Assembly (NCBI GenBank): GCA_019637995.1 | Contig: JAHBUQ010000001.1 | Span: 1,103,589 to 1,167,588 of the forward strand | Reading direction: 5' to 3' | DNA: 64,000 nt | Origin: Ignavibacteriota bacterium | Lineage (GTDB): Bacteria > Bacteroidota > Ignavibacteria > Kapaibacteriales > UBA2268 | Part shown: one piece after another, positions 25,993 through 35,469 of the stretch | Layout of the letters: the number at the start of each line of letters is the position of its first letter | Numbering within the stretch: position 1 is the first letter of the stretch | Translations under genes and position numbers: made by a program | The notes under the pieces: model-generated | What the model saw: the letters and a program-made list of their open reading frames with translations, nothing else | What the model was told of the DNA's origin: nothing | Database searches by the model: none

Positions 25993-26030
25993 CTCCCTTG
26001 CCCATTTATTAGGTAAGGGATTTTTTTTTC
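25993..26030 (+). terminator. Rho-independent terminator after ahcY. An 8-bp stem (CCCTTGCC / GGTAAGGG, with one G-U pair) is followed by T9.
   Basis: Inverted repeat immediately followed by TTTTTTTTT, 28 nt after the ahcY stop. Confidence 0.6.
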
Positions 26031-26120
26031 AAGAATATTCAATTTTTCATTTTAGCAATATTATTTTTTACTCAACTGAAACAAACATTATAAAATTGTG
26101 TCTATGCAATTGAAAAAGAT

Positions 26121-26684
26121 ATGAAAAATTTTAATAAATATAGCGACAACGATTTAATTCAAATAACGGCAAATTCCGGTGAGCCGGAAAAATCTGCGGC
26201 TTTTTCTGAATTGTATAATCGCTATGCAAATAATATTTATCTGTATTGCAGGAAAATTTTCGGTGATGGCACTTTTGCAGAGGATATTTTTCAGGATACT
26301 TTTTTACAACTACTTAAATGTATTGAAAATAAAATATATATTGGAAATGTGCAGGGGTATTTACTTAAAACAGCACGCAATTTATCACTGAATTTCAGGC
26401 GTAACCAAAGAGCTGAAATGGTAGAATTTGATGATTTCAGAGCAAATATTGACGATAACAGCTACGAACTTAAAGAACTTTCCGAAATGATTGATTCTGC
26501 TCTGGAGTTACTGCCTGAAGAGCATAAAGAAGCATTTATACTTCAATCTTATCAGGGACTTAGCTATAGTGAAATTGCAACACTAACCGACGTACCGCTT
26601 TCAACTGTCCGCAACAGAATTGTAAGGGCAAAAGCAAAATTAAGAGAAATTCTGGCTCCAATGATTAAGGAGGAAAAATTATGA
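26121..26684 (+). CDS. ECF-type (sigma-70 family, group 4) RNA polymerase sigma factor, 187 aa. Module 1.
   Basis: Region 2-like FSELYNRYANNIYLYCRKIFGD..AEDIFQDTFLQLL and region 4-like LSYSEIATLTDVPLSTVRNRIVRAKAKLR helix-turn-helix. A candidate TGAAAC-N16-TGTCTA promoter sits at 26077-26104. Confidence 0.85.
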   Translation: MKNFNKYSDNDLIQITANSGEPEKSAAFSELYNRYANNIYLYCRKIFGDGTFAEDIFQDTFLQLLKCIENKIYIGNVQGYLLKTARNLSLNFRRNQRAEMVEFDDFRANIDDNSYELKELSEMIDSALELLPEEHKEAFILQSYQGLSYSEIATLTDVPLSTVRNRIVRAKAKLREILAPMIKEEKL

Positions 26685-27919
26685 AAAATTATGATACATA
26701 CAGCGAGTTGATTTATCTTGTAATTGATGGGGAAGCAAGTGATGCTGAAAGAACTGCTTTCTATTCAGCACTTACCAAAAGCACCGAATTACAAAATGAA
26801 TTTCAAACTGCTATGAAGTTTAACAGAGCGGCTGAGAGTTATCCGAAAAAATCAACTGTTCCGGTGGCAGTTACTGATAAATTATTCAGCAAAGCCGGCT
26901 TGACATATATCCCCAAAGATGCGGCTATAGGTGCTGCAGCCGTTACAAAAGGAGCAATTGTAAAAAGTGGTATCTTTAGTAATGTTATGAGCAACTCAAT
27001 CAGTAAAATTGGCTTTGCTGTTATTGGAATGATCCTTGGTGCCGGAATAATGTATTTACTGAATGATAATTCCGAAATTATCGCTGCCGGAAGTCAGCCC
27101 AATAATATTGACAACAGATTTATCAAATTCGCAGAACCTGAAAAAGCAATTCCAATAATGAGTGCAAATAATGTTGATGAAATTTCATTTACTAAAAGCA
27201 TCAAACGTAACAAAATTGCATCTAATAATTCAGGAAAAATTCTAACAGAGGATGTTGGAATGGAAGATGAAAAATTTGAGAATATTCCTCATCTTAAAGA
27301 TATATCAGAGATATCAAATATTTCAAATAGTAATGAATATTTTCACAATTTGAGTAAATCTAATATTAATTACGAGAGATTTAATAAGATGATTTATGAA
27401 AATAACATCCTGAATAAAAACAACATATTTACATTCTTTGATAATCTGGAAATCTCTTTGGAAAATTCAATTCCGTGGTTTGTTCCTGAAGCATCAGTAT
27501 CACCAAAATCTTATAATAAATTCAACAATTTGGGCTTAAGAGTGTTATTTAAGGCAAATGATTATTTCAGGACCGGAATTTCAATAAATCAGTCCACATT
27601 TTTTGCAGAGTTTATTCAAAGTGAAATGGATGGGAATATTTACAATTATCGAATTCAGCCAAATTTAACAACGGTTTCAAGTGAAATTTTAATTAATTTG
27701 ATAAATTCGGAAGTGTTGGTGCCGTATATTCAGCTTAGTGTGGGAGCTAATCAGGCAGGGATTGTTTTAAGTCCGGCAATGGGTATTGAGTACAATGTTG
27801 TAAATTCTTTATCAATTTATTTCAGTGGTACAATGGATTATTTTAGATTTATACAAAACGACAACTGGTTCGATACTCAAAAATTCAGACTGAATTACGG
27901 TATAAATCTCAAATTTTAA
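26681..27919 (+). CDS. Anti-sigma-like membrane protein, 412 aa. It has a cytoplasmic N-domain, a single TM helix, an N/S/K-rich linker and a C-terminal predicted 8-strand OM beta-barrel-like domain ending in a beta-signal (..YGINLKF). Module 1.
   Basis: The start overlaps the sigma stop (ATGA) and is preceded by AAGGAGGA. The TM segment is IGFAVIGMILGAGIMYLL. The last ~130 aa show 8 alternating-hydrophobic stretches and a terminal Phe with hydrophobics at -2, -4 and -6. Confidence 0.5.
   Translation: MKNYDTYSELIYLVIDGEASDAERTAFYSALTKSTELQNEFQTAMKFNRAAESYPKKSTVPVAVTDKLFSKAGLTYIPKDAAIGAAAVTKGAIVKSGIFSNVMSNSISKIGFAVIGMILGAGIMYLLNDNSEIIAAGSQPNNIDNRFIKFAEPEKAIPIMSANNVDEISFTKSIKRNKIASNNSGKILTEDVGMEDEKFENIPHLKDISEISNISNSNEYFHNLSKSNINYERFNKMIYENNILNKNNIFTFFDNLEISLENSIPWFVPEASVSPKSYNKFNNLGLRVLFKANDYFRTGISINQSTFFAEFIQSEMDGNIYNYRIQPNLTTVSSEILINLINSEVLVPYIQLSVGANQAGIVLSPAMGIEYNVVNSLSIYFSGTMDYFRFIQNDNWFDTQKFRLNYGINLKF
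27138..27265. repeat. 128-bp tract (coding AIPIMSANNVDEISFTKSIKRNKIASNNSGKILTEDVGME) that is ~98% identical at nucleotide level to 31436-31563 in the paralogous anti-sigma gene
   Basis: Side-by-side reading shows three mismatches in 128 nt. The flanking sequence of the two genes is only 20-50% identical at protein level. Confidence 0.7.
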
Positions 27920-27934
27920 TTAGGAGAAATTGCT

Positions 27935-28396
27935 ATGAAATTACTTTTGAAAAGTATATTGCTTTTAATGATAATAATTATTTTCAGTTCTTGCAAAGAT
28001 ATACTTTCTACAGAACCGAGATATGATAAAAAAATCATAACTGAAAATCTATCACCTGCTGATTCACTCAAACTTCTGACCTTACCCGATGTGGACTTAG
28101 GAATTATTAGAGTAAAAGCTATGATTTCAAGGAATATCATTATTGCCAATAATTCTGATTTACACGATATAGAAATATATTCAATTGATAATGATAATAA
28201 AACGGGAATATTTACTTACGGTTTTCCTGAAGGAATGCCATTTGTTATTAAGTCGTCTTCAAGTACTGAACTTTTCCCTGCAATCGAAGTAACATTCATT
28301 GCTGACCCAATTGTACCGGGAATTTTCTATGACACATTATACATAAATCAAAACGAAGAAATGTTTATTCCAATAAGAGTGCAAACAAGATTTTAA
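27935..28396 (+). CDS. Small lipoprotein, 153 aa, with a single Ig-like (DUF1573-like) domain. Module 1.
   Basis: Signal peptide plus lipobox-like IIIFSSC, with AGGAG upstream. The core LPDVDLGIIRVKAM..NNSD resembles the C-terminal domain of the 349-aa lipoprotein in module 2. Confidence 0.6.
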   Translation: MKLLLKSILLLMIIIIFSSCKDILSTEPRYDKKIITENLSPADSLKLLTLPDVDLGIIRVKAMISRNIIIANNSDLHDIEIYSIDNDNKTGIFTYGFPEGMPFVIKSSSSTELFPAIEVTFIADPIVPGIFYDTLYINQNEEMFIPIRVQTRF

Positions 28397-28416
28397 TAAT
28401 AAAAAGGAGTTCTAAA

Positions 28417-30111
28417 ATGAAAAAGTTCACATTGTATTTAGTTGCTTTCTTTGCGATTTCCTCACCGCTTTTAGCGCAAAAGTTTAATCATCCCGAACTA
28501 CAGTCGGATACATTAAGAACATTTGAAAGTAAAAAGAATACTGTCAGCAATATTCAATTCGGTGCAACAAATTATGGGATAAGTAATTGTTATTTCAATT
28601 TCCCTGAATTACGGGGTGTAATTTGGCCCAGAAATAGTGATATTACTTATTCTTTTGGAAGCGGGTTGTGGATTGGCGCTAGTAAATATCATCCTGATTC
28701 AAATAAAACAAGAAACATGGTTCTAATAACATATAACCCGAACTCAGGGAAAAGTTGGGCTGTGCCAGGGAGAATAGAAGACGGAAATGAAGTCAAATAT
28801 GATTTGAAGAAGAAATACAGGACATTTTTAAGTACAGAATACAACACATACACAGGCGAGCCTTTTGATAGTGATTACGAATATAATTGGTCTCACTGGA
28901 TTTCAAACGGAGAGAAAAAGTACAGTCATGGAGTATTTTTAAATGAATACGAACACGAAAATTCAAAGCGAAACCGCGATAATTATCTTAATGGTCCTTT
29001 AATTGTATCCGATGAAGATATTGTAACTACCTTCAAGGATACAGACTTAAACTTTTATGAGGGTGGCTCAGCAAACAGACTGGCACAAGGTTATCCCTTG
29101 AGTTTACAAATGGAATCATCCATTTATTCTTGGAGCGATGATTTAATGAAAGATGTGATAATTCAAAGATATGTAATTGAAAATAAGTCCAATGACACAC
29201 TTAAAGACTGTTGGATTGGGAATTATAATGGTGTTGGGATTGGACTTATTTCAAAGTTTGATAACAAAGAATGGGGGACAAAAGATAGATTGATTTACTA
29301 CGAAGAAGATAAAACATTGAATCTTTTTGTTGCTTGGTCAGAAAATTCTGAGGTCATAAATGGTAAAGGATTTGGTTACTTTGGTGTATCCTTGCTTGAA
29401 ACTCCGGCAGTTGATAGCGATGGCTTTTTGAGAAATGACAAGCTAATATATCAAATGGATGAACAGATTGGATTAAAGTCATTGTATAATTGGCACATCA
29501 AGAATGATCCAAGATACGATGAACAAAGATATGACATATTAACATCAAACCAAATTTACAAGTCAGATGATTATCTTGATGGTGGAAGAGTTATGACATC
29601 TACCGGTCCATTTCACTTTCGTCCGGGAGAAAAGGCATACTTTACTGTATTGATAGCATTTGCACTTCCTGCTAAAGGAGGCGAAGCTGACGGTACAAAA
29701 GAAGATATTGCAGGTATCGGCGGCAAAATCAACAAGGGCGATAATCCAATTAAACAAAGCAACGAATTATCACTTATTGATAAAATCAAATTTGCAAGAG
29801 ATAAATATTATAATGGCTTAGTTACAAAAATATTGGAATCTGAAGTTCGCAGAAATTCAGAATTGAGTGTCTATCCCAACCCCGCTACAGATTTCATTAC
29901 AATTCAATTAAGCAAAAAAGGGCTTCAGCCCTTTGCAGCGACTGGTAAAGTGCAAATATTTGATGCGTTGGGTTTGGAAGTCATATCCACCCCGTCAGCT
30001 GCGCTGACACCCACGGGTGAGGGGAATTTAAGAATTGATGTTTCGCATTTACCAGCAGGAGTTTATTTCATACGTGTTGGTAATAAGGTAGGCAAATTTG
30101 TGAAGAAGTAA
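28417..30111 (+). CDS. Secreted protein of unknown function, 564 aa, with a T9SS C-terminal sorting domain. Module 1 cargo.
   Basis: Signal peptide MKKFTLYLVAFFAISSPLLAQ and AAGGAG upstream. The last ~80 aa, LSVYPNPATDFITIQLS...GVYFIRVGNKVGKFVKK, form a Por secretion tail. Confidence 0.7.
   Translation: MKKFTLYLVAFFAISSPLLAQKFNHPELQSDTLRTFESKKNTVSNIQFGATNYGISNCYFNFPELRGVIWPRNSDITYSFGSGLWIGASKYHPDSNKTRNMVLITYNPNSGKSWAVPGRIEDGNEVKYDLKKKYRTFLSTEYNTYTGEPFDSDYEYNWSHWISNGEKKYSHGVFLNEYEHENSKRNRDNYLNGPLIVSDEDIVTTFKDTDLNFYEGGSANRLAQGYPLSLQMESSIYSWSDDLMKDVIIQRYVIENKSNDTLKDCWIGNYNGVGIGLISKFDNKEWGTKDRLIYYEEDKTLNLFVAWSENSEVINGKGFGYFGVSLLETPAVDSDGFLRNDKLIYQMDEQIGLKSLYNWHIKNDPRYDEQRYDILTSNQIYKSDDYLDGGRVMTSTGPFHFRPGEKAYFTVLIAFALPAKGGEADGTKEDIAGIGGKINKGDNPIKQSNELSLIDKIKFARDKYYNGLVTKILESEVRRNSELSVYPNPATDFITIQLSKKGLQPFAATGKVQIFDALGLEVISTPSAALTPTGEGNLRIDVSHLPAGVYFIRVGNKVGKFVKK
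29872..30111 (+). repeat. T9SS-tail-coding block, ~90% identical at nucleotide level to 35231-35469 at the 3' end of the module-2 cargo gene. It contains an internal perfect hairpin, AAAGGGC-TTCA-GCCCTTT, at 29917-29934.
   Basis: Direct comparison of the two 3' ends. The bodies of the two proteins are unrelated. Confidence 0.7.
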
Positions 30112-30159
30112 ATCTGTTGAATGTTAAATGTTATTGAGTTGAATGTTTAATCCGTCTTC

Positions 30160-30190
30160 GCAACAAAGGGCTTCAGCACTTTGCAATAAG
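30160..30190 (+). repeat. Non-coding relic of the T9SS-tail-coding block (GCAACAAAGGGCTTCAGCACTTTGCAATAAG), about 25 of 28 nt matching 35268-35298
   Basis: It lies 50 nt after the stop of the 28417 gene and matches the SNKELQPFAA-coding segment of the 34132 gene. Confidence 0.5.
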
Positions 30191-30206
30191 ATTAAGTAGC
30201 CAAAAC

Positions 30207-30250
30207 AGATGGACTACACCTCGGAGGTGGAGTCCATCTTGCTTTTTATT
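30207..30250 (+). terminator. Long-stem hairpin terminator. A 15-bp stem (AGATGGACTACACCT / AGGTGGAGTCCATCT, one mismatch) is followed by TGCTTTTTATT. The stem is conserved with the hairpin at 34054-34088.
   Basis: Read directly. T-tract follows. Confidence 0.6.
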
Positions 30251-30509
30251 AATCCCAGAAATCCTTTAATCCGAATAATCTCTGATTCAGAAAATGTTGA
30301 AAAACTATAATTTTAAATATTGAAAATAATTTGTGACTTTTTATTCCTAATTTACGTTAATTATTTATGAAAGTTGTACTTTTATAAAAATTATGAATAC
30401 TGAATAACAAAAATATAGCGATAATGATTTAATTAAAATTATCAGAAGTGGTGAAGGTTACTCAGTTGACTATTCCTTCAACACTCTTTATGAAAGGTAT
30501 TCTGCTAAG

Positions 30510-30989
30510 TTGAATTTATTTTGTGTATTCAAATCAAAAAATCCACTTGATGCTGAGGAAATTTTCGAAGATACCTGGCTCAAGTTTCTTGATAGAATCA
30601 GGCAAGGAAAAATACCTGAATCAGTTCTGTCATATTTATTTGCAATTGCAAGAAATCTTGCGATAGACAGGTATCGTGCTGAAATTTCAAAGAAAACAAT
30701 TACAATTGAGTATCGGGATTATTTGAATTTTGAAGACGACTATAGTCAATTATCAACTGAAAATTTGGTTGATGCTGATGAACTTAAGGAGGTTATTATG
30801 GGCGTTCTTTCAAATATGGACGACATTTACAGCGAAGTTTTTATTATGCAGTGGTTTGGCGGGTTAACTCAAAGGGAAATTTCCGAAACACTGAATATTG
30901 GTTTGTCAGCAGTAAAGATGCGAAGTCATCGTGCCATGAAAGAAGTTATTAAATATGTTAAGCCAATTTATAAGAATTATGATGAGTAG
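30510..30989 (+). CDS. ECF sigma factor paralog, module 2. The 5' end is disrupted by an in-frame TAA at 30405-30407, downstream of an ATG at 30393. The longest intact ORF starts at TTG 30510 and would lack part of region 2.1. Possible pseudogene.
   Basis: The frame 30393-30989 reads MNTE*QKYSDNDLIKIIRSGEGYSVDYSFNTLYERYSAKL-MNLFCVF.... This aligns with the module-1 sigma MKNFNKYSDNDLIQI...FSELYNRYANNIYLY. Region 4 (LTQREISETLNIGLSAVKMRSHRAMKEV) is intact. Confidence 0.6.
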   Translation: MNLFCVFKSKNPLDAEEIFEDTWLKFLDRIRQGKIPESVLSYLFAIARNLAIDRYRAEISKKTITIEYRDYLNFEDDYSQLSTENLVDADELKEVIMGVLSNMDDIYSEVFIMQWFGGLTQREISETLNIGLSAVKMRSHRAMKEVIKYVKPIYKNYDE

Positions 30990-31005
30990 TTCGGAGGATA
31001 TGAAA

Positions 31006-32196
31006 ATGGAAAATATTGATAGATTTACCAAATATTATTCCGGGGAAATGAATCAAATTGAAGAGGAATTATTTTTTTCTGAATTAGCTTTAGATAATTC
31101 AGTCAGAGATGAATTTAAAACTTTTTATATGATAAATAGTTCCTTATCATCAATTGTCAGTTCCTATAAACCAAGTGAAGAAAGTAAAGCCAAGCTTTTC
31201 AGCAAAGCCGGATTGGTTTATTCACCGGCTGCCATAACGGTAGCGGCTCTGACTGCAACAAAAGGCACAATAATCAGTCAGATTGCGACTTATACAATGG
31301 GCAAACTCGGTTTAATTTTGTTTGGTTTAATTATCGGCGCCGGACTGATGTATCTGCTAAATTCTCAACCTGAAAATATTGCTTTAAATAATCAACCGGC
31401 TAATAATGAGGAAAGAATCATTCAAATCTTAGATTCTGAAAAAGCAATTCCAATAATGAGTGCAAATAATGTTGATGAAATTTCATTTACTAAAAGTATC
31501 AAACGTAACAAAATTGCATCTAATAATTCAGGAAAAATTCTAACTGAGGATGTTGGAATGGAGGAGAAAGAAGAACTTCACACCCATAATATACAAATTA
31601 AAAAGTGTCAAATACCTGATGTTCATAATTTTGAAGGAAATATAATTCCAGAATATAAATTAAATTCTGAAATTAAAAATACAGAGTATTATCAAAAAAT
31701 TTCAACAGATTTTAAAGAATTAGGTTTATCAGTTGAAACAAGATACTCTACATACTGGAATATGGTAAATGAAAATGTTCAGCCAAGTGAATTTTCGATT
31801 TTTAATAATATTGATATATTTGTTTATAAAGAAGTCTTGCAAAATTTGCTTCTGGGTGCAGGTGTGCGTCAGGAAACGTTTTATGCTAAATATAACTCTT
31901 TCGAGAATGGACGGGATTTTATATATGAGCAACAACCAAATCTTACAAATTTTGAGTTAGCAATTCGGTATTTCCCATATAATATTGAATTTTTCAAACC
32001 GCTTATTCAACTGAACTTAGGCGGTGGTAACTATGGATTCACATATCGTGGAGCAATTGGAAGTGAAATTAATCTGATAGACAAATTTTCAATATTATTA
32101 ACTATTGATTATGCCACATTCAATTTTTTTCATAAAGACATAAAGAACAATTCGGGTAAAGTTGGAATTAATTACGGAATAAATTATAAATTTTAA
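31006..32196 (+). CDS. Anti-sigma-like membrane protein paralog, module 2. Same architecture as module 1: N-domain, TM helix LGLILFGLIIGAGLMYLL, linker, and an 8-strand beta-barrel-like C-terminus ending ..NYGINYKF.
   Basis: I place the start at ATG 31006, giving MENIDRF.... This is 7 nt after GGAGGA and matches the module-1 MKNYDTY start. The ORF track begins at 30955, inside the sigma gene. Confidence 0.5.
   Translation: MENIDRFTKYYSGEMNQIEEELFFSELALDNSVRDEFKTFYMINSSLSSIVSSYKPSEESKAKLFSKAGLVYSPAAITVAALTATKGTIISQIATYTMGKLGLILFGLIIGAGLMYLLNSQPENIALNNQPANNEERIIQILDSEKAIPIMSANNVDEISFTKSIKRNKIASNNSGKILTEDVGMEEKEELHTHNIQIKKCQIPDVHNFEGNIIPEYKLNSEIKNTEYYQKISTDFKELGLSVETRYSTYWNMVNENVQPSEFSIFNNIDIFVYKEVLQNLLLGAGVRQETFYAKYNSFENGRDFIYEQQPNLTNFELAIRYFPYNIEFFKPLIQLNLGGGNYGFTYRGAIGSEINLIDKFSILLTIDYATFNFFHKDIKNNSGKVGINYGINYKF
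31436..31563. repeat. Partner copy of the 128-bp near-identical tract (see 27138-27265)
   Basis: Same basis as 27138-27265. Confidence 0.7.
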
Positions 32197-32202
32197 ATAA
32201 AT

Positions 32203-32946
32203 TTGGAGAGAACAATGAATACTAAAATCATTTTATCATTAGCATTGCTTTTGCTATTTTTGACATCCTGTGAAGACATTGTCAATTCAGAAAAGAACAT
32301 TAAGAAAACTGGATACTTGTATAATAAGGTTCTTAATAATCAGGAAAAAAACGTATTAATGCCATTGAAAGTTGGTAATATGTGGCTATATGAAGTCAAA
32401 CAATTTGACTCATCCGGTACAATGATTAACGAATATATTGACTCAATCGAAGTCTTAGAGAAAATCAACTTCAGAGGCGAAACATGGTTTAGAGTCAGAA
32501 TGATAGATATGGGTTCTACTTGGAATTCAATTCTGACTAATACAGATAAGGGGCTATATCGTGCAGACGAGAACACCACACTTGATTGTAGATTTATAGT
32601 AGCTCAATATCCTGAGAATCGAAGTCAAATTATTGCCCTTCATGAAGAAAATGTGATGATTATGTATTTTGACGGTCAGAAAGATGTTATTGATACAGTT
32701 ACAACTCAATATTTAATTGAATTAAATGCAAATTATACTGCTTCTTTTAAATCTGCAAATTATCCTGCACGGGAGTATTCTACTTACTGGAGGGCATTAG
32801 AGTTGGTTGATAGTAAAACTTTGCATAAAGTTGATGTTTTTGTTCCAAACATAGGTCTTTTTGAGCATAAACGCTACCGCTTTGCCGGAGGCAGAAGGTA
32901 TGTTGAAACCCACTATAAATTAGTAGCAACTAATTTAATAAAATAA
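32203..32946 (+). CDS. Lipoprotein, 247 aa, paralog of the N-terminal domain of the next gene. Module 2.
   Basis: Lipobox FLTSCED. The leader TAAATAAATTTGGAGA is identical to that of the next gene. Shared blocks include CEDIVNSEKNIKKT/CDDIVNSDSNIKKT and MPLKVGNMWLYEV/MPLKVGYKWLYSV. Confidence 0.6.
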   Translation: MERTMNTKIILSLALLLLFLTSCEDIVNSEKNIKKTGYLYNKVLNNQEKNVLMPLKVGNMWLYEVKQFDSSGTMINEYIDSIEVLEKINFRGETWFRVRMIDMGSTWNSILTNTDKGLYRADENTTLDCRFIVAQYPENRSQIIALHEENVMIMYFDGQKDVIDTVTTQYLIELNANYTASFKSANYPAREYSTYWRALELVDSKTLHKVDVFVPNIGLFEHKRYRFAGGRRYVETHYKLVATNLIK

Positions 32947-32965
32947 ATAAATTTGGAGAAACATT

Positions 32966-34015
32966 ATGAAATCGAAAGTTATATTAATGCTAATCACAGT
33001 GCTTGTTATTATAACAGCTTGCGATGATATTGTCAATTCCGACAGTAACATCAAGAAAACGTCGCTTGATTATAGTAAGGTACTTGATAATCAGGAAACA
33101 GGTGTCATAATGCCACTGAAGGTGGGTTATAAGTGGCTGTATTCAGTTGATAAAGTAAATGAAGAAAATGTCGCAATTAGTAATCGTATTGATTCTATTG
33201 TCGTTCTGCGTGAAGTAATGTTGGAAAATGAAAAATGGTTTGAAGTATATTTCCCAATGTTTTCAAGAGATTACAATGTCCTGATGACCAATACCGAAAA
33301 AGGTTTGATGATTCATTGCGAGCAATGCTTGGAAAAGAAATTTCTTTGGGCAGAATATCCACAAAATGGCAGTCTTTTCTATAGCGGAAGGAAATTAATT
33401 CAGTTGAAAGATTCCCAAGGAAATGTAATTGGTCAAGATTATGTACCATTAGGCAAAGAGTCGCAGAGTTCCGGTGTTAGTTTACAAAATGGAAAAAGCT
33501 TTTCAACGGTAAATTATGTCTGTTATGCAATCAATCAAAACAAAATGCAAAAAGAAGTTTTCCTTGGAGATGAGCATTTCTCTCCGGATTTTGGTTTAGT
33601 TGCCGGATTTACTAAAGCGTTAGATGGAATGCTTGGAGAGCAGTATGAGTATTTAGAGTTTTCTAATATTAGCGAAGTAAATCAATGTATTTATGAAGAA
33701 ACCATCAACCTTGGCGACATACAAATTGGAAAGGTTCATTCATTCACAAAAGAAATAACAAATACCACTGACAAAACTTATAGTTTGAAAGGAATAGCAA
33801 TAATACCGGCTACTGAAATTATCAGCTTCGGAAAAATTACACCTACAATGCACGACTGGCTTAACTTCCCAATCAGACAAAATCAAAAGCTTTCTATTGA
33901 AATTAAAGTTACACCAGACAAATTAGGAGATTTCTCTACATCAGTAATGATATTTCATTCAGAAATGCATAATTGTTTTTATAGAATTTATATTAACGGT
34001 ACTTGTGTAGAGTAG
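32966..34015 (+). CDS. Lipoprotein, 349 aa: N-domain paralogous to the 32203 gene plus a C-terminal Ig-like domain related to the 27935 lipoprotein. Module 2.
   Basis: Lipobox IITACDD. The C-terminal INLGDIQIGKVHSFTKEITNTTD... is DUF1573-like. Confidence 0.6.
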   Translation: MKSKVILMLITVLVIITACDDIVNSDSNIKKTSLDYSKVLDNQETGVIMPLKVGYKWLYSVDKVNEENVAISNRIDSIVVLREVMLENEKWFEVYFPMFSRDYNVLMTNTEKGLMIHCEQCLEKKFLWAEYPQNGSLFYSGRKLIQLKDSQGNVIGQDYVPLGKESQSSGVSLQNGKSFSTVNYVCYAINQNKMQKEVFLGDEHFSPDFGLVAGFTKALDGMLGEQYEYLEFSNISEVNQCIYEETINLGDIQIGKVHSFTKEITNTTDKTYSLKGIAIIPATEIISFGKITPTMHDWLNFPIRQNQKLSIEIKVTPDKLGDFSTSVMIFHSEMHNCFYRIYINGTCVE

Positions 34016-34053
34016 GAAATTAGATATAATCTGTATCGCAGATTTAGTCAAGC

Positions 34054-34088
34054 CAGATGGACTCCACTTACAAAGTGGAGTCCATCTG
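34054..34088. repeat. Perfect 15-bp-stem hairpin (CAGATGGACTCCACT-TACAA-AGTGGAGTCCATCTG). The stem sequence is shared with 30207-30239. No clear T-tract follows, so this may be a REP-like element or a terminator.
   Basis: Read directly. It lies between the second lipoprotein gene and the cargo gene of module 2. Confidence 0.45.
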
Positions 34089-34131
34089 AAAATCAAATAT
34101 TTTATTTAGTAATTATATAATTGGAGAAAAA

Positions 34132-35469
34132 ATGAAAACCAAAATTTTATTGCTTTGTTTATTTGTTATGATTTATAGCGAAAGTTCTTCCCAGCTTATA
34201 AAATGGGATACGTTAACAACCGACTTTGATTATTTCAACAGACAACATTTCCATACTATAAATGAAACAAGAGAATACATATATTCTTTCAATTTAGGTT
34301 CCATCGTTAATAATCTATTAGTTATTTCAGAGTATGATATTTACAAAAAAGATTTCTCAGAACAAATCTCATTCAAATTAGATCAGATGTATAATCCAAA
34401 TGAATACCGTCCTAATGATTGCATTATGACTGAAAACAACATTATTTATGTAGTTGCTGATTCAGGATATATTTTTCAAAAAAATATTTTTAACAAAGAA
34501 TGGACTTCAAGAAAAATTATTGAAGAAAGTGCTTTGATTTACAATATTGCTTTCAAGGATTCTTTATTTGGTATTATTTCAAATTATCCGGATTATGAAA
34601 ACCTGATACCTGAGCTGCATTATACTGAAGATGGAGGAAATAATTGGTCAAAATTTGAAAATCAAATTGAGAACGAAAAGCCATTTTTAATTACAAGTTT
34701 TAGATTTTTTCAGGATACAATGATTGTAATTACTTATGAACCGGAAACAAAAAATCGAAAGATATATTTCAGTTTTAACTCGGGATATAATTGGGATTAT
34801 ATCAATGAATTCCCAAAATTTAGTTCATTAGAAAGACATAATAGTATTTATTTCAAAAATGGAAAGTTATGGGTTGCTTCGATAAGGTCAGAGGAATTTG
34901 TTTTTTCTGATAATTTTGGTCTAACATGGACGAAAGTAAATGAAGTTAATTCTAATGAAGGGATTCGGGGTATCAGGAATATAACTTTTAAAGATAATTT
35001 AAATGAAGGTTTTGCACTAAATCCATACGGTGTTTATTATACTACAGATGGTTTAAACTGGGAATTTGACAGAAATCATGAAGATAAGCAACTAGAAAAA
35101 TTGAACTTAACGCAATTCAATTACAAAGATGAAATTTATCTTATACAAGATAGCGCTGCATTAAAATATGATGGTCTGATTACTTCAATTAAACAAAATG
35201 ATGTTTCAAAAATTGGAGGCATGAGCGTTCATCCCAACCCCGCTACAGATTTCATCACAATTCAATTAAGCAACAAAGAGCTTCAGCCCTTTGCAGCAGA
35301 AGAAAAAGTGCAGATATTTGATGCGTTGGGTTTGGAAGTCATATCCACCCCGTCAGCTGCGCTGACACCCACGGGTGAGGGGAATTTAAGAATTGATGTT
35401 TCGCATTTACCAGCAGGAGTGTATTTCATTCGCATTGGTGAGCAAGTGAGTATGTTTGTAAAGCACTAG
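34132..35469 (+). CDS. Secreted BNR/beta-propeller-like protein, 445 aa, with a T9SS C-terminal sorting domain. Module 2 cargo.
   Basis: Signal peptide MKTKILLLCLFVMIYSESSSQ. BNR-like motifs YTEDGGNNWS, SDNFGLTWTK and YTTDGLNWE. The tail MSVHPNPATDFITIQLS...GVYFIRIGEQVSMFVKH is ~90% identical to that of the 28417 gene. Confidence 0.7.
   Translation: MKTKILLLCLFVMIYSESSSQLIKWDTLTTDFDYFNRQHFHTINETREYIYSFNLGSIVNNLLVISEYDIYKKDFSEQISFKLDQMYNPNEYRPNDCIMTENNIIYVVADSGYIFQKNIFNKEWTSRKIIEESALIYNIAFKDSLFGIISNYPDYENLIPELHYTEDGGNNWSKFENQIENEKPFLITSFRFFQDTMIVITYEPETKNRKIYFSFNSGYNWDYINEFPKFSSLERHNSIYFKNGKLWVASIRSEEFVFSDNFGLTWTKVNEVNSNEGIRGIRNITFKDNLNEGFALNPYGVYYTTDGLNWEFDRNHEDKQLEKLNLTQFNYKDEIYLIQDSAALKYDGLITSIKQNDVSKIGGMSVHPNPATDFITIQLSNKELQPFAAEEKVQIFDALGLEVISTPSAALTPTGEGNLRIDVSHLPAGVYFIRIGEQVSMFVKH
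35231..35469 (+). repeat. Partner copy of the T9SS-tail-coding block (see 29872-30111)
   Basis: Same basis as 29872-30111. Confidence 0.7.

Follow-up and report, generated by a model that had tools for sequence, protein, structure and literature searches.

Gene conversion between paralogs at separate loci of one bacterial genome (ectopic, or interlocus, conversion) is known from tufA/tufB, ribosomal RNA operons and surface-protein gene families, and homologous recombination between strains has produced mosaic genes such as the pneumococcal pbp genes and the genes for neisserial surface proteins. Here, we describe a near-identical tract in two otherwise diverged genes for putative anti-sigma factors, found in a 64,000-nucleotide (nt) stretch (the window; contig JAHBUQ010000001.1 of GCA_019637995.1, positions 1,103,589 to 1,167,588) of a Candidatus Kapabacteria metagenome-assembled genome (MAG), whose class NCBI taxonomy places in Bacteroidota. 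The two genes lie on the + strand in tandem modules: paralog 1 (P0001, KIT33_01735; 26681-27919, 412 amino acids) in module 1 (26121-30111) and paralog 2 (P0009, KIT33_01755; 31006-32196, 396 amino acids) in module 2 (30393-35469). We took 31006 as the start of paralog 2, where the mechanical list of open reading frames (ORFs) begins at 30955. [quoted passage not shown] For anti-sigma factors of the Dma type, a proposed route of release is proteolytic cleavage close to the inner membrane (PMC10927553). We consider it very probable that the tract is the trace of a short and recent ectopic conversion event between the two tandem genes, in a part of the gene that serves as a recombination joint of the family.

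The two copies of the tract are at 27138-27265 in paralog 1, where the tract covers residues 153-195, and at 31436-31563 in paralog 2. Upon alignment, we found that they agree at 125 of 128 nt (97.7%), with the three mismatches that the sequence-only reading had counted. Both copies are in frame within same-strand ORFs, and both encode EKAIPIMSANNVDEISFTKSIKRNKIASNNSGKILTEDVGME. Each mismatch falls on a third codon position and is synonymous: C/T at 27199/31497 (AGC/AGT, Ser), A/T at 27247/31545 (ACA/ACT, Thr), and A/G at 27265/31563 (GAA/GAG, Glu). The exact runs between them measure 61, 47, and 17 nt, and the mismatch-bounded block is 27138-27264 (127 nt). Outside the tract, the paralogs are ∼49% identical at the nucleotide level (5′ flank, 51.7%; 3′ flank, 46.4%), and the whole proteins are 38% identical over their full length. 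The flanks range from 10 to 60% amino acid identity in windows of 20 codons, which makes the earlier estimate of 20 to 50% essentially right. Along a codon-aware alignment, nucleotide identity climbs from 0.4-0.6 to 0.92-0.98 in the tract and is back at 0.4-0.6 within ∼20 codons of it in both directions, giving the near-identical block sharp edges. If sites matched at the flank rate of 0.486, 125 or more matches in 128 positions would arise with a binomial probability of 3e-35. This confirms that the near-identity is real and far beyond chance.

The silent sites were homogenized as well. The Nei-Gojobori synonymous divergence (dS) is 0.12 in the tract as compared to 1.71 in the 5′ flank and 2.07 in the 3′ flank, and 37 of the 40 codons that specify the same amino acid in both copies are identical. 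Since silent sites are homogenized in the tract, protein constraint is no explanation for it. These results fit what the sequence-only reading had favored, namely recent gene conversion between the tandem modules, as does every other test that we ran. As in known cases of ectopic conversion, a sharp block of near-identity that includes silent sites joins diverged paralogs of one genome, and the tract is short (∼10^2 bp) and present as direct repeats a few kb apart (4,298 bp between the two same-strand copies). In contrast to those cases, the flanks here are ∼50% identical with no obvious homology to prime an exchange, the patch lies in a segment coding for a disordered linker rather than a conserved core, and we have no indication, such as silent cassettes or a dedicated recombinase, that variation is programmed. 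Our literature search on gene conversion in anti-sigma paralogs returned nothing specific.

We looked for the tract beyond the two genes. A 59-mer from it, allowing up to three mismatches, occurs only twice in the window, and self-comparison of the 64 kb gave three internal similarities: the tract, a patch in the sorting domains of proteins secreted by a type IX secretion system (T9SS), and a pair of lipoprotein paralogs. Among 5.8 billion proteins, two full-protein searches recovered the tract peptide only in P0001, P0009, and P0004, the last from a hybrid relative (locus L001) described below. A dispersed repeat, insertion sequence or miniature inverted-repeat transposable element was rejected on these counts of two copies in the window and three proteins overall; within the window, the tract is not a repeat at many loci, an outcome that the sequence-only reading had asked to be checked. 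An exact search with a 26-mer gave no matches in genome and metagenome contig collections, which evidently lack both the source MAG and L001, leaving this search uninformative. A family scan of genomes yielded eight loci, at which neither a tandem pair nor a converted tract was present, and the corresponding metagenome scan yielded one short, distant contig.

Identity at silent sites is also what would be seen if a nucleotide-level element, such as a structured RNA, a promoter inside the gene or a DNA site bound by a protein, kept the DNA constant in both genes. However, every test for such an element was null. The tract folds no better than shuffled sequences (z of -0.77 on the + strand and -0.17 on the - strand), and Rfam gave no match at E ≤ 1 in 26000-33000, which led us to reject a structured RNA. 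A sigma-70 scan found no sigma-70-like site in the tract and a regional density of promoter-like sites below that of shuffles, and no copy of the extracytoplasmic function (ECF) sigma-like motif TGAAAC-N15-GTGTC lies inside the tract; an internal promoter was rejected on these grounds. An overlapping ORF was rejected too, as no alternative-frame or overlapping small ORF spans the tract. Furthermore, L001 has 13 substitutions in the tract and all other relatives are without it. The embedded RNA element and the internal promoter, both offered by the sequence-only reading as alternatives to conversion, were thus not borne out, and we regard a nucleotide-level element of any of these kinds as very improbable.

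The source being a MAG, the assembler could in principle have led the path of one paralog through k-mers belonging to the other; an exact run of 61 nt, the longest here, is within the range of assembly k-mers. Both junctions would nevertheless still need reads that join paralog 1 flanks to the tract, and the three differing sites imply that the copies were not collapsed. In addition, another deposited assembly, GCA_026129425.1, has the same sequence over 21,191 bp of the region (100% identity), and L001, on an independent contig, is a natural hybrid of these genes. We consider an assembly artifact extremely improbable.

The relatives of the two genes provided further evidence. At locus L002 (P0002), the whole of module 1 has an ortholog (79% over 26063-29907), yet identity drops to only ∼55% in the tract and stays at that level in the rest of the linker. 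L001 follows module 1 in its sigma gene and in the first ∼65 codons of its anti-sigma gene (up to 96%) and, from the conserved FSKAGL motif onward, follows paralog 2 and the gene downstream of it (overall identity 90%, rising to 100% in codons 195-260). At the FSKAGL motif, the 14-mer TTCAGCAAAGCCGG is common to all four sequences. The tract is present in L001 at 90% identity, contiguous with paralog 2-type flanks that are 93 to 100% identical; it has 13 substitutions relative to paralog 2, and its peptide differs at seven residues, with a dN/dS (nonsynonymous to synonymous divergence) of ∼0.27, similar to that of the flanks. When L001 2484-3852 was compared with 31198-32565 of the window, exact runs of 54, 203, and 95 nt stood out in a background of ∼10 to 12% divergence, the first two directly on either side of the tract center. 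Such exact islands in a diverged background indicate that patches of 50 to 200 nt are the usual grain of exchange in this lineage.

Larger exchanges in the same part of the gene are seen among other relatives. Loci L003 and L004 (P0006), from sister samples, are 98% identical to L001 up to approximately codon 74 and 97% identical from approximately codon 238, while the middle 494 bp, which code for the segment before the transmembrane (TM) helix, the helix itself and the linker, cannot be aligned between L001 and L003. We read this difference as a cassette replacement between near-identical strains. Locus L016 (P0008) pairs a sigma gene of the sigma 2 type (84% at the amino acid level) and a type B N-terminus with a barrel of the module 1 type, and its downstream genes are likewise of the module 1 type (lipoprotein 55%, T9SS cargo 62%). 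With modules 1 and 2, L001/L003, and L016, all four combinations of {sigma + anti-sigma domain} and {barrel + downstream genes} exist, and their breakpoints fall in the TM/linker-coding middle of the anti-sigma gene; sigma type always cosegregates with N-terminal type in the recombinants. Taken by segment, the nearest neighbor of P0001 is P0004/P0006 in the N-terminus, P0003 in the pre-TM segment and TM helix, P0009 in the tract (93%), and P0002 in the C-terminus; the flanks of P0009 are nearest to P0004. Judging from these alignments, the middle of the gene (pre-TM segment, TM helix, and linker) behaves as a recombination joint across the whole family. The resemblance to mosaic genes formed by recombination between strains is close, in that the nearest neighbor shifts by segment, identical blocks are set in diverged surroundings, and near-identical strains differ by replaced cassettes. 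The differences are that here a regulatory half (sigma factor and anti-sigma domain) reassorts with a sensor/target half (barrel and downstream genes), and that no drug or immune selection is known.

Exchange between strains could account for the tract without any exchange within the genome, if both paralogs had independently taken the patch from a third allele in the population. The exact runs between L001 and paralog 2 show that patches do pass between lineages, and cassettes are swapped between strains that are 98% identical. On the other hand, two events with the same boundaries would be needed instead of one, the copies within this genome are 97.7% alike as compared to 90% for the only known external copy (L001), and no further carrier was found among the 5.8e9 proteins. 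Descent of both copies from a third allele therefore strikes us as improbable.

A second homogenized patch links the same two modules. It covers the T9SS C-terminal sorting domains of cargo protein 1 (29863-30069) and cargo protein 2 (35221-35427), both on the + strand, which are 92.8% identical at the nucleotide level and include a 107-nt exact run beginning at 29956 and ending at 30062. The dS in this patch is 0.157 as compared to 1.12 in the 54 nt directly upstream, and the N-terminal remainders of the two cargo proteins (564 and 445 amino acids) have no tblastn match to each other. This second patch is independent of the tract and of similar age.

Ectopic gene conversion is our favored explanation since silent sites are homogenized only in the tract, since the tract has sharp edges, only two copies in the window, and a peptide found in three of 5.8e9 proteins, and since relatives recombine in the same part of the gene and a second patch links the same modules. 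By this account, nonreciprocal recombination would have moved a short segment between same-strand paralogs 4,298 bp apart, the exchanged segment being one predicted to code for the membrane-proximal part of the disordered periplasmic linker. A disordered linker would presumably tolerate such replacement. The mechanism may have been short-patch conversion of the RecA type, or else template switching that was primed by short conserved motifs. At its 5′ edge, the tract coincides with a semiconserved motif that 14 of the 25 family members have, E-x-x-[IY]-P-x-M-[ST]-S, and at its 3′ edge, with a purine-rich acidic run. These edge motifs suggest microhomology-primed exchange or template switching.

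Regarding direction, the contiguity of the tract with paralog 2-type flanks in L001 points to paralog 2 as the source, and the 90% tract identity of L001 fits its background divergence from paralog 2. The tract is probably native to the paralog 2 type of cassette. The tract type would then already have been in that cassette when the lineages of L001 and the window split, and the simplest history would be a transfer from paralog 2 to paralog 1. L001 matches paralog 1 at two of the three tract mismatches, which suggests that paralog 2 has mutated at these sites since the exchange. A later back-conversion from paralog 1 to paralog 2 may also have occurred. The use of L002 to polarize the exchange was rejected because its whole linker is diverged, not the tract alone.

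Several observations weigh against this account. The flanks are ∼50% identical today and there is no extended homology outside the patch, so that classical RecA-dependent conversion would be inefficient; microhomology is confined to the 5′ edge motif and the 3′ purine-rich run. With respect to direction, all 13 mismatches between L001 and paralog 2 in 31413-31762 (350 nt) are inside the tract, a clustering that could also reflect a change on the L001 side or a later event in the direction paralog 1 to paralog 2. L002 and P0003, which are closest to paralog 1, are diverged over the whole linker, making their lack of the tract weak evidence on direction. The integrity of the assembly was judged at the level of assembled sequence. 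Lastly, all three changes since the exchange are synonymous (P = 0.008 under neutrality for three of three; P = 0.04 for two of two), which hints that the peptide is not purely a neutral spacer.

The bias toward synonymous changes also bears on whether selection acted on the converted patch, which would be the case if it had been kept as a shared short linear motif in the periplasmic linker through which both anti-sigma factors answer the same trigger. Candidate roles for such a motif are site-1 protease cleavage or docking, or binding of a common periplasmic partner. Consistent with this, the 5′ motif [IY]-P-x-M-[ST]-S recurs in 14 of the 25 members, ∼25 to 30 residues past the TM helix, and release near the inner membrane by proteolysis is what has been proposed for Dma-type factors (PMC10927553). 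Against it, three substitutions are a tiny sample, the region is predicted to be disordered, with a predicted local distance difference test (pLDDT) score of ∼30, and the L001 peptide differs at seven residues with a dN/dS of ∼0.27 like that of its flanks. Moreover, past the short motif, the peptide is mostly unique to the three proteins. The shared binding epitope suggested by the sequence-only reading cannot by itself explain identity at silent sites, and it has a place only as the reason why a converted allele was kept. Selection for a shared linker motif is not needed to explain the tract, and we hold conversion followed by such selection to be unlikely.

We next consider the proteins themselves. 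An AlphaFold2 model of paralog 1, built on the alignment of 25 family members, predicts an N-terminal domain of three helices (residues 4-52, pLDDT ∼80), a single membrane helix (residues 101-127), a disordered linker of ∼120 residues with almost no secondary structure (residues 128-248, pLDDT ∼30), and a C-terminal beta-barrel (residues 256-411, pLDDT 75-95) in which DSSP lists ten strand segments. Residues 153-195, encoded by the tract, are the membrane-proximal part of the predicted disordered periplasmic linker. Foldseek searches of the barrel against PDB matched the transmembrane domain of OmpA (E of 3.8e-6) as well as NspA, Ail, OmpW, and OmpX, over a range of 4e-6 to 1e-3. Paralog 1 combines an anti-sigma-like domain (ASD) of type A, the TM helix and disordered linker with a barrel of type alpha, and paralog 2 combines an ASD of type B, a TM helix and linker with a barrel of type beta, both Dma-like; the label "anti-sigma" given by the sequence-only reading was an inference that this architecture backs.

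At the level of sequence, neither anti-sigma ORF has a significant match in Pfam or NCBIfam. Below threshold, Pfam matches across the family were to OMP_b-brl (7 of 25), zf-HC2 (7 of 25), and RseA_N (one), those of paralog 1 being weak hits to zf-HC2 and OMP_b-brl, OMP_b-brl_2 gave no match, and a PDB sequence search with the family profile returned nothing meaningful. The C-termini of the family proteins read ...YGIN-x-K-F/L. A profile search collected 1,665 representatives of 50%-identity clusters at E ≤ 1e-3, 464 of them at E ≤ 1e-30; at this level the family is nearly all full length (370-490 amino acids), its representatives are unnamed, and ten that we sampled had no Pfam match. P0001 therefore belongs to a sizeable unannotated family.

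We compared these proteins to Dma factors (PMC10927553, PMC9308784) by architecture. The shared features are an anti-sigma gene that directly follows an ECF sigma gene; a predicted helical domain at the N-terminus, which would be cytoplasmic, then a predicted TM helix and a predicted long disordered periplasmic region; a small C-terminal beta-barrel of the OmpA/OmpX type, supported by its fold, which would sit in the outer membrane; and a host in Bacteroidota, the phylum of the Dma family. The proteins differ from Dma factors in that their Pfam matches to OMP_b-brl are sub-threshold, with none for OMP_b-brl_2, and in that they are shorter (∼400 amino acids). The two tandem modules, each continuing into lipoproteins and a T9SS-secreted protein, also contrast with the NigD-like genes that accompany Dma. 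Based on the predicted layout, it is plausible that both paralogs are members of the Dma family.

In both modules, and in L001-L005 and L016, an ECF sigma gene is next to the anti-sigma gene and co-oriented with it. ECF sigma factor 1 (26121-26684, + strand), the presumed cognate of paralog 1, has the Pfam domains Sigma70_r2 and r4_2 and an NCBIfam sigma70-ECF match of 93.8 bits; its best subfamily match in NCBIfam, Sig70_bacteroi1, is below the cut-off for that model. Its stop codon overlaps the start of paralog 1 as ATGA. A candidate autoregulated ECF-type promoter, TGAAAC-N15-GTGTCTATGC, is found at 26077-26106, ∼20 to 45 nt upstream of the sigma 1 start; it recurs near base-for-base in L001, L002, L003, and L005 and is absent upstream of sigma 2. 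ECF sigma factor 2 (30393-30989, + strand), upstream of paralog 2, contains an in-frame TAA at 30405-30407 and reads MNTE*QKYSDNDL... from the ATG at 30393, and gene callers start it at TTG 30510. This TTG is the first canonical start past the TAA and would drop the beginning of region 2. Sigma 2 may be a pseudogene, may carry a sequencing error or may have an unusual start. Sigma 2-type fragments that are 84 to 92% identical occur upstream of ASD type B genes in L016 and L017, where the C-terminal fragments look intact.

Repeats of other kinds were observed around the sigma and cargo genes. Upstream of sigma 2, at 30245-30303, stands an AT-rich repeat unit, TTAATCC..GAAATCC..TTAATCC..GATTCAGA, related to multicopy intergenic repeats that flank the homologous module in L005 (5781-6442, 11406-11574, and 14139-14408); a short tandem repeat of another kind (..ATGTAACG..) precedes the sigma gene of L002. 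GC-rich hairpins related to each other, CAGATGGACTMCAC ... GTGGAGTCCATCT, stand after the final gene of module 1 (30197-30240) and after the lipoprotein genes of module 2 (34045-34088), and one of the two scores as terminator-like. A 26-nt palindromic piece, GCAAMAAAGRGCTTCAGCMCTTTGCA, is found inside both sorting-domain coding regions (29912-29937 and 35270-35295) and in the intergenic DNA after cargo gene 1 (30160-30185), where it may be the remnant of a sorting-domain fragment or due to chance. On the 3′ side of paralog 2 are two tandem lipoprotein paralogs (32203-32946 and 32966-34015), which are 42% identical in amino acids over ∼160 N-terminal residues and 73% identical in nucleotides over 32194-32391/32944-33142. 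Neither has a significant Pfam match.

Taken alone, the tract shows the textbook signs of gene conversion and has little wider consequence, gene conversion being an ordinary process, here in an uncommon gene family. A bolder proposal is that the TM helix and linker are an evolved recombination joint that rewires sigma factors to barrel and target sets, and that selection made the shared 42-residue juxtamembrane peptide a common input motif, for instance a site for a protease or partner, coupling the two modules. We think this rather doubtful; if true, the tract would represent concerted evolution of a signaling motif and not a neutral patch. The context is of modest interest as a case of tandem Dma-like anti-sigma modules in Kapabacteria, in which the coding sequence of a disordered periplasmic tether is the site where recombination reassorts the regulatory half with the sensor/target half (barrel, lipoproteins, and T9SS cargo). 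For annotation, this means that orthology in the family is to be assigned per segment and not per gene. The natural chimeras could also help in designing domain swaps to study signal transmission across the envelope by such anti-sigma factors.

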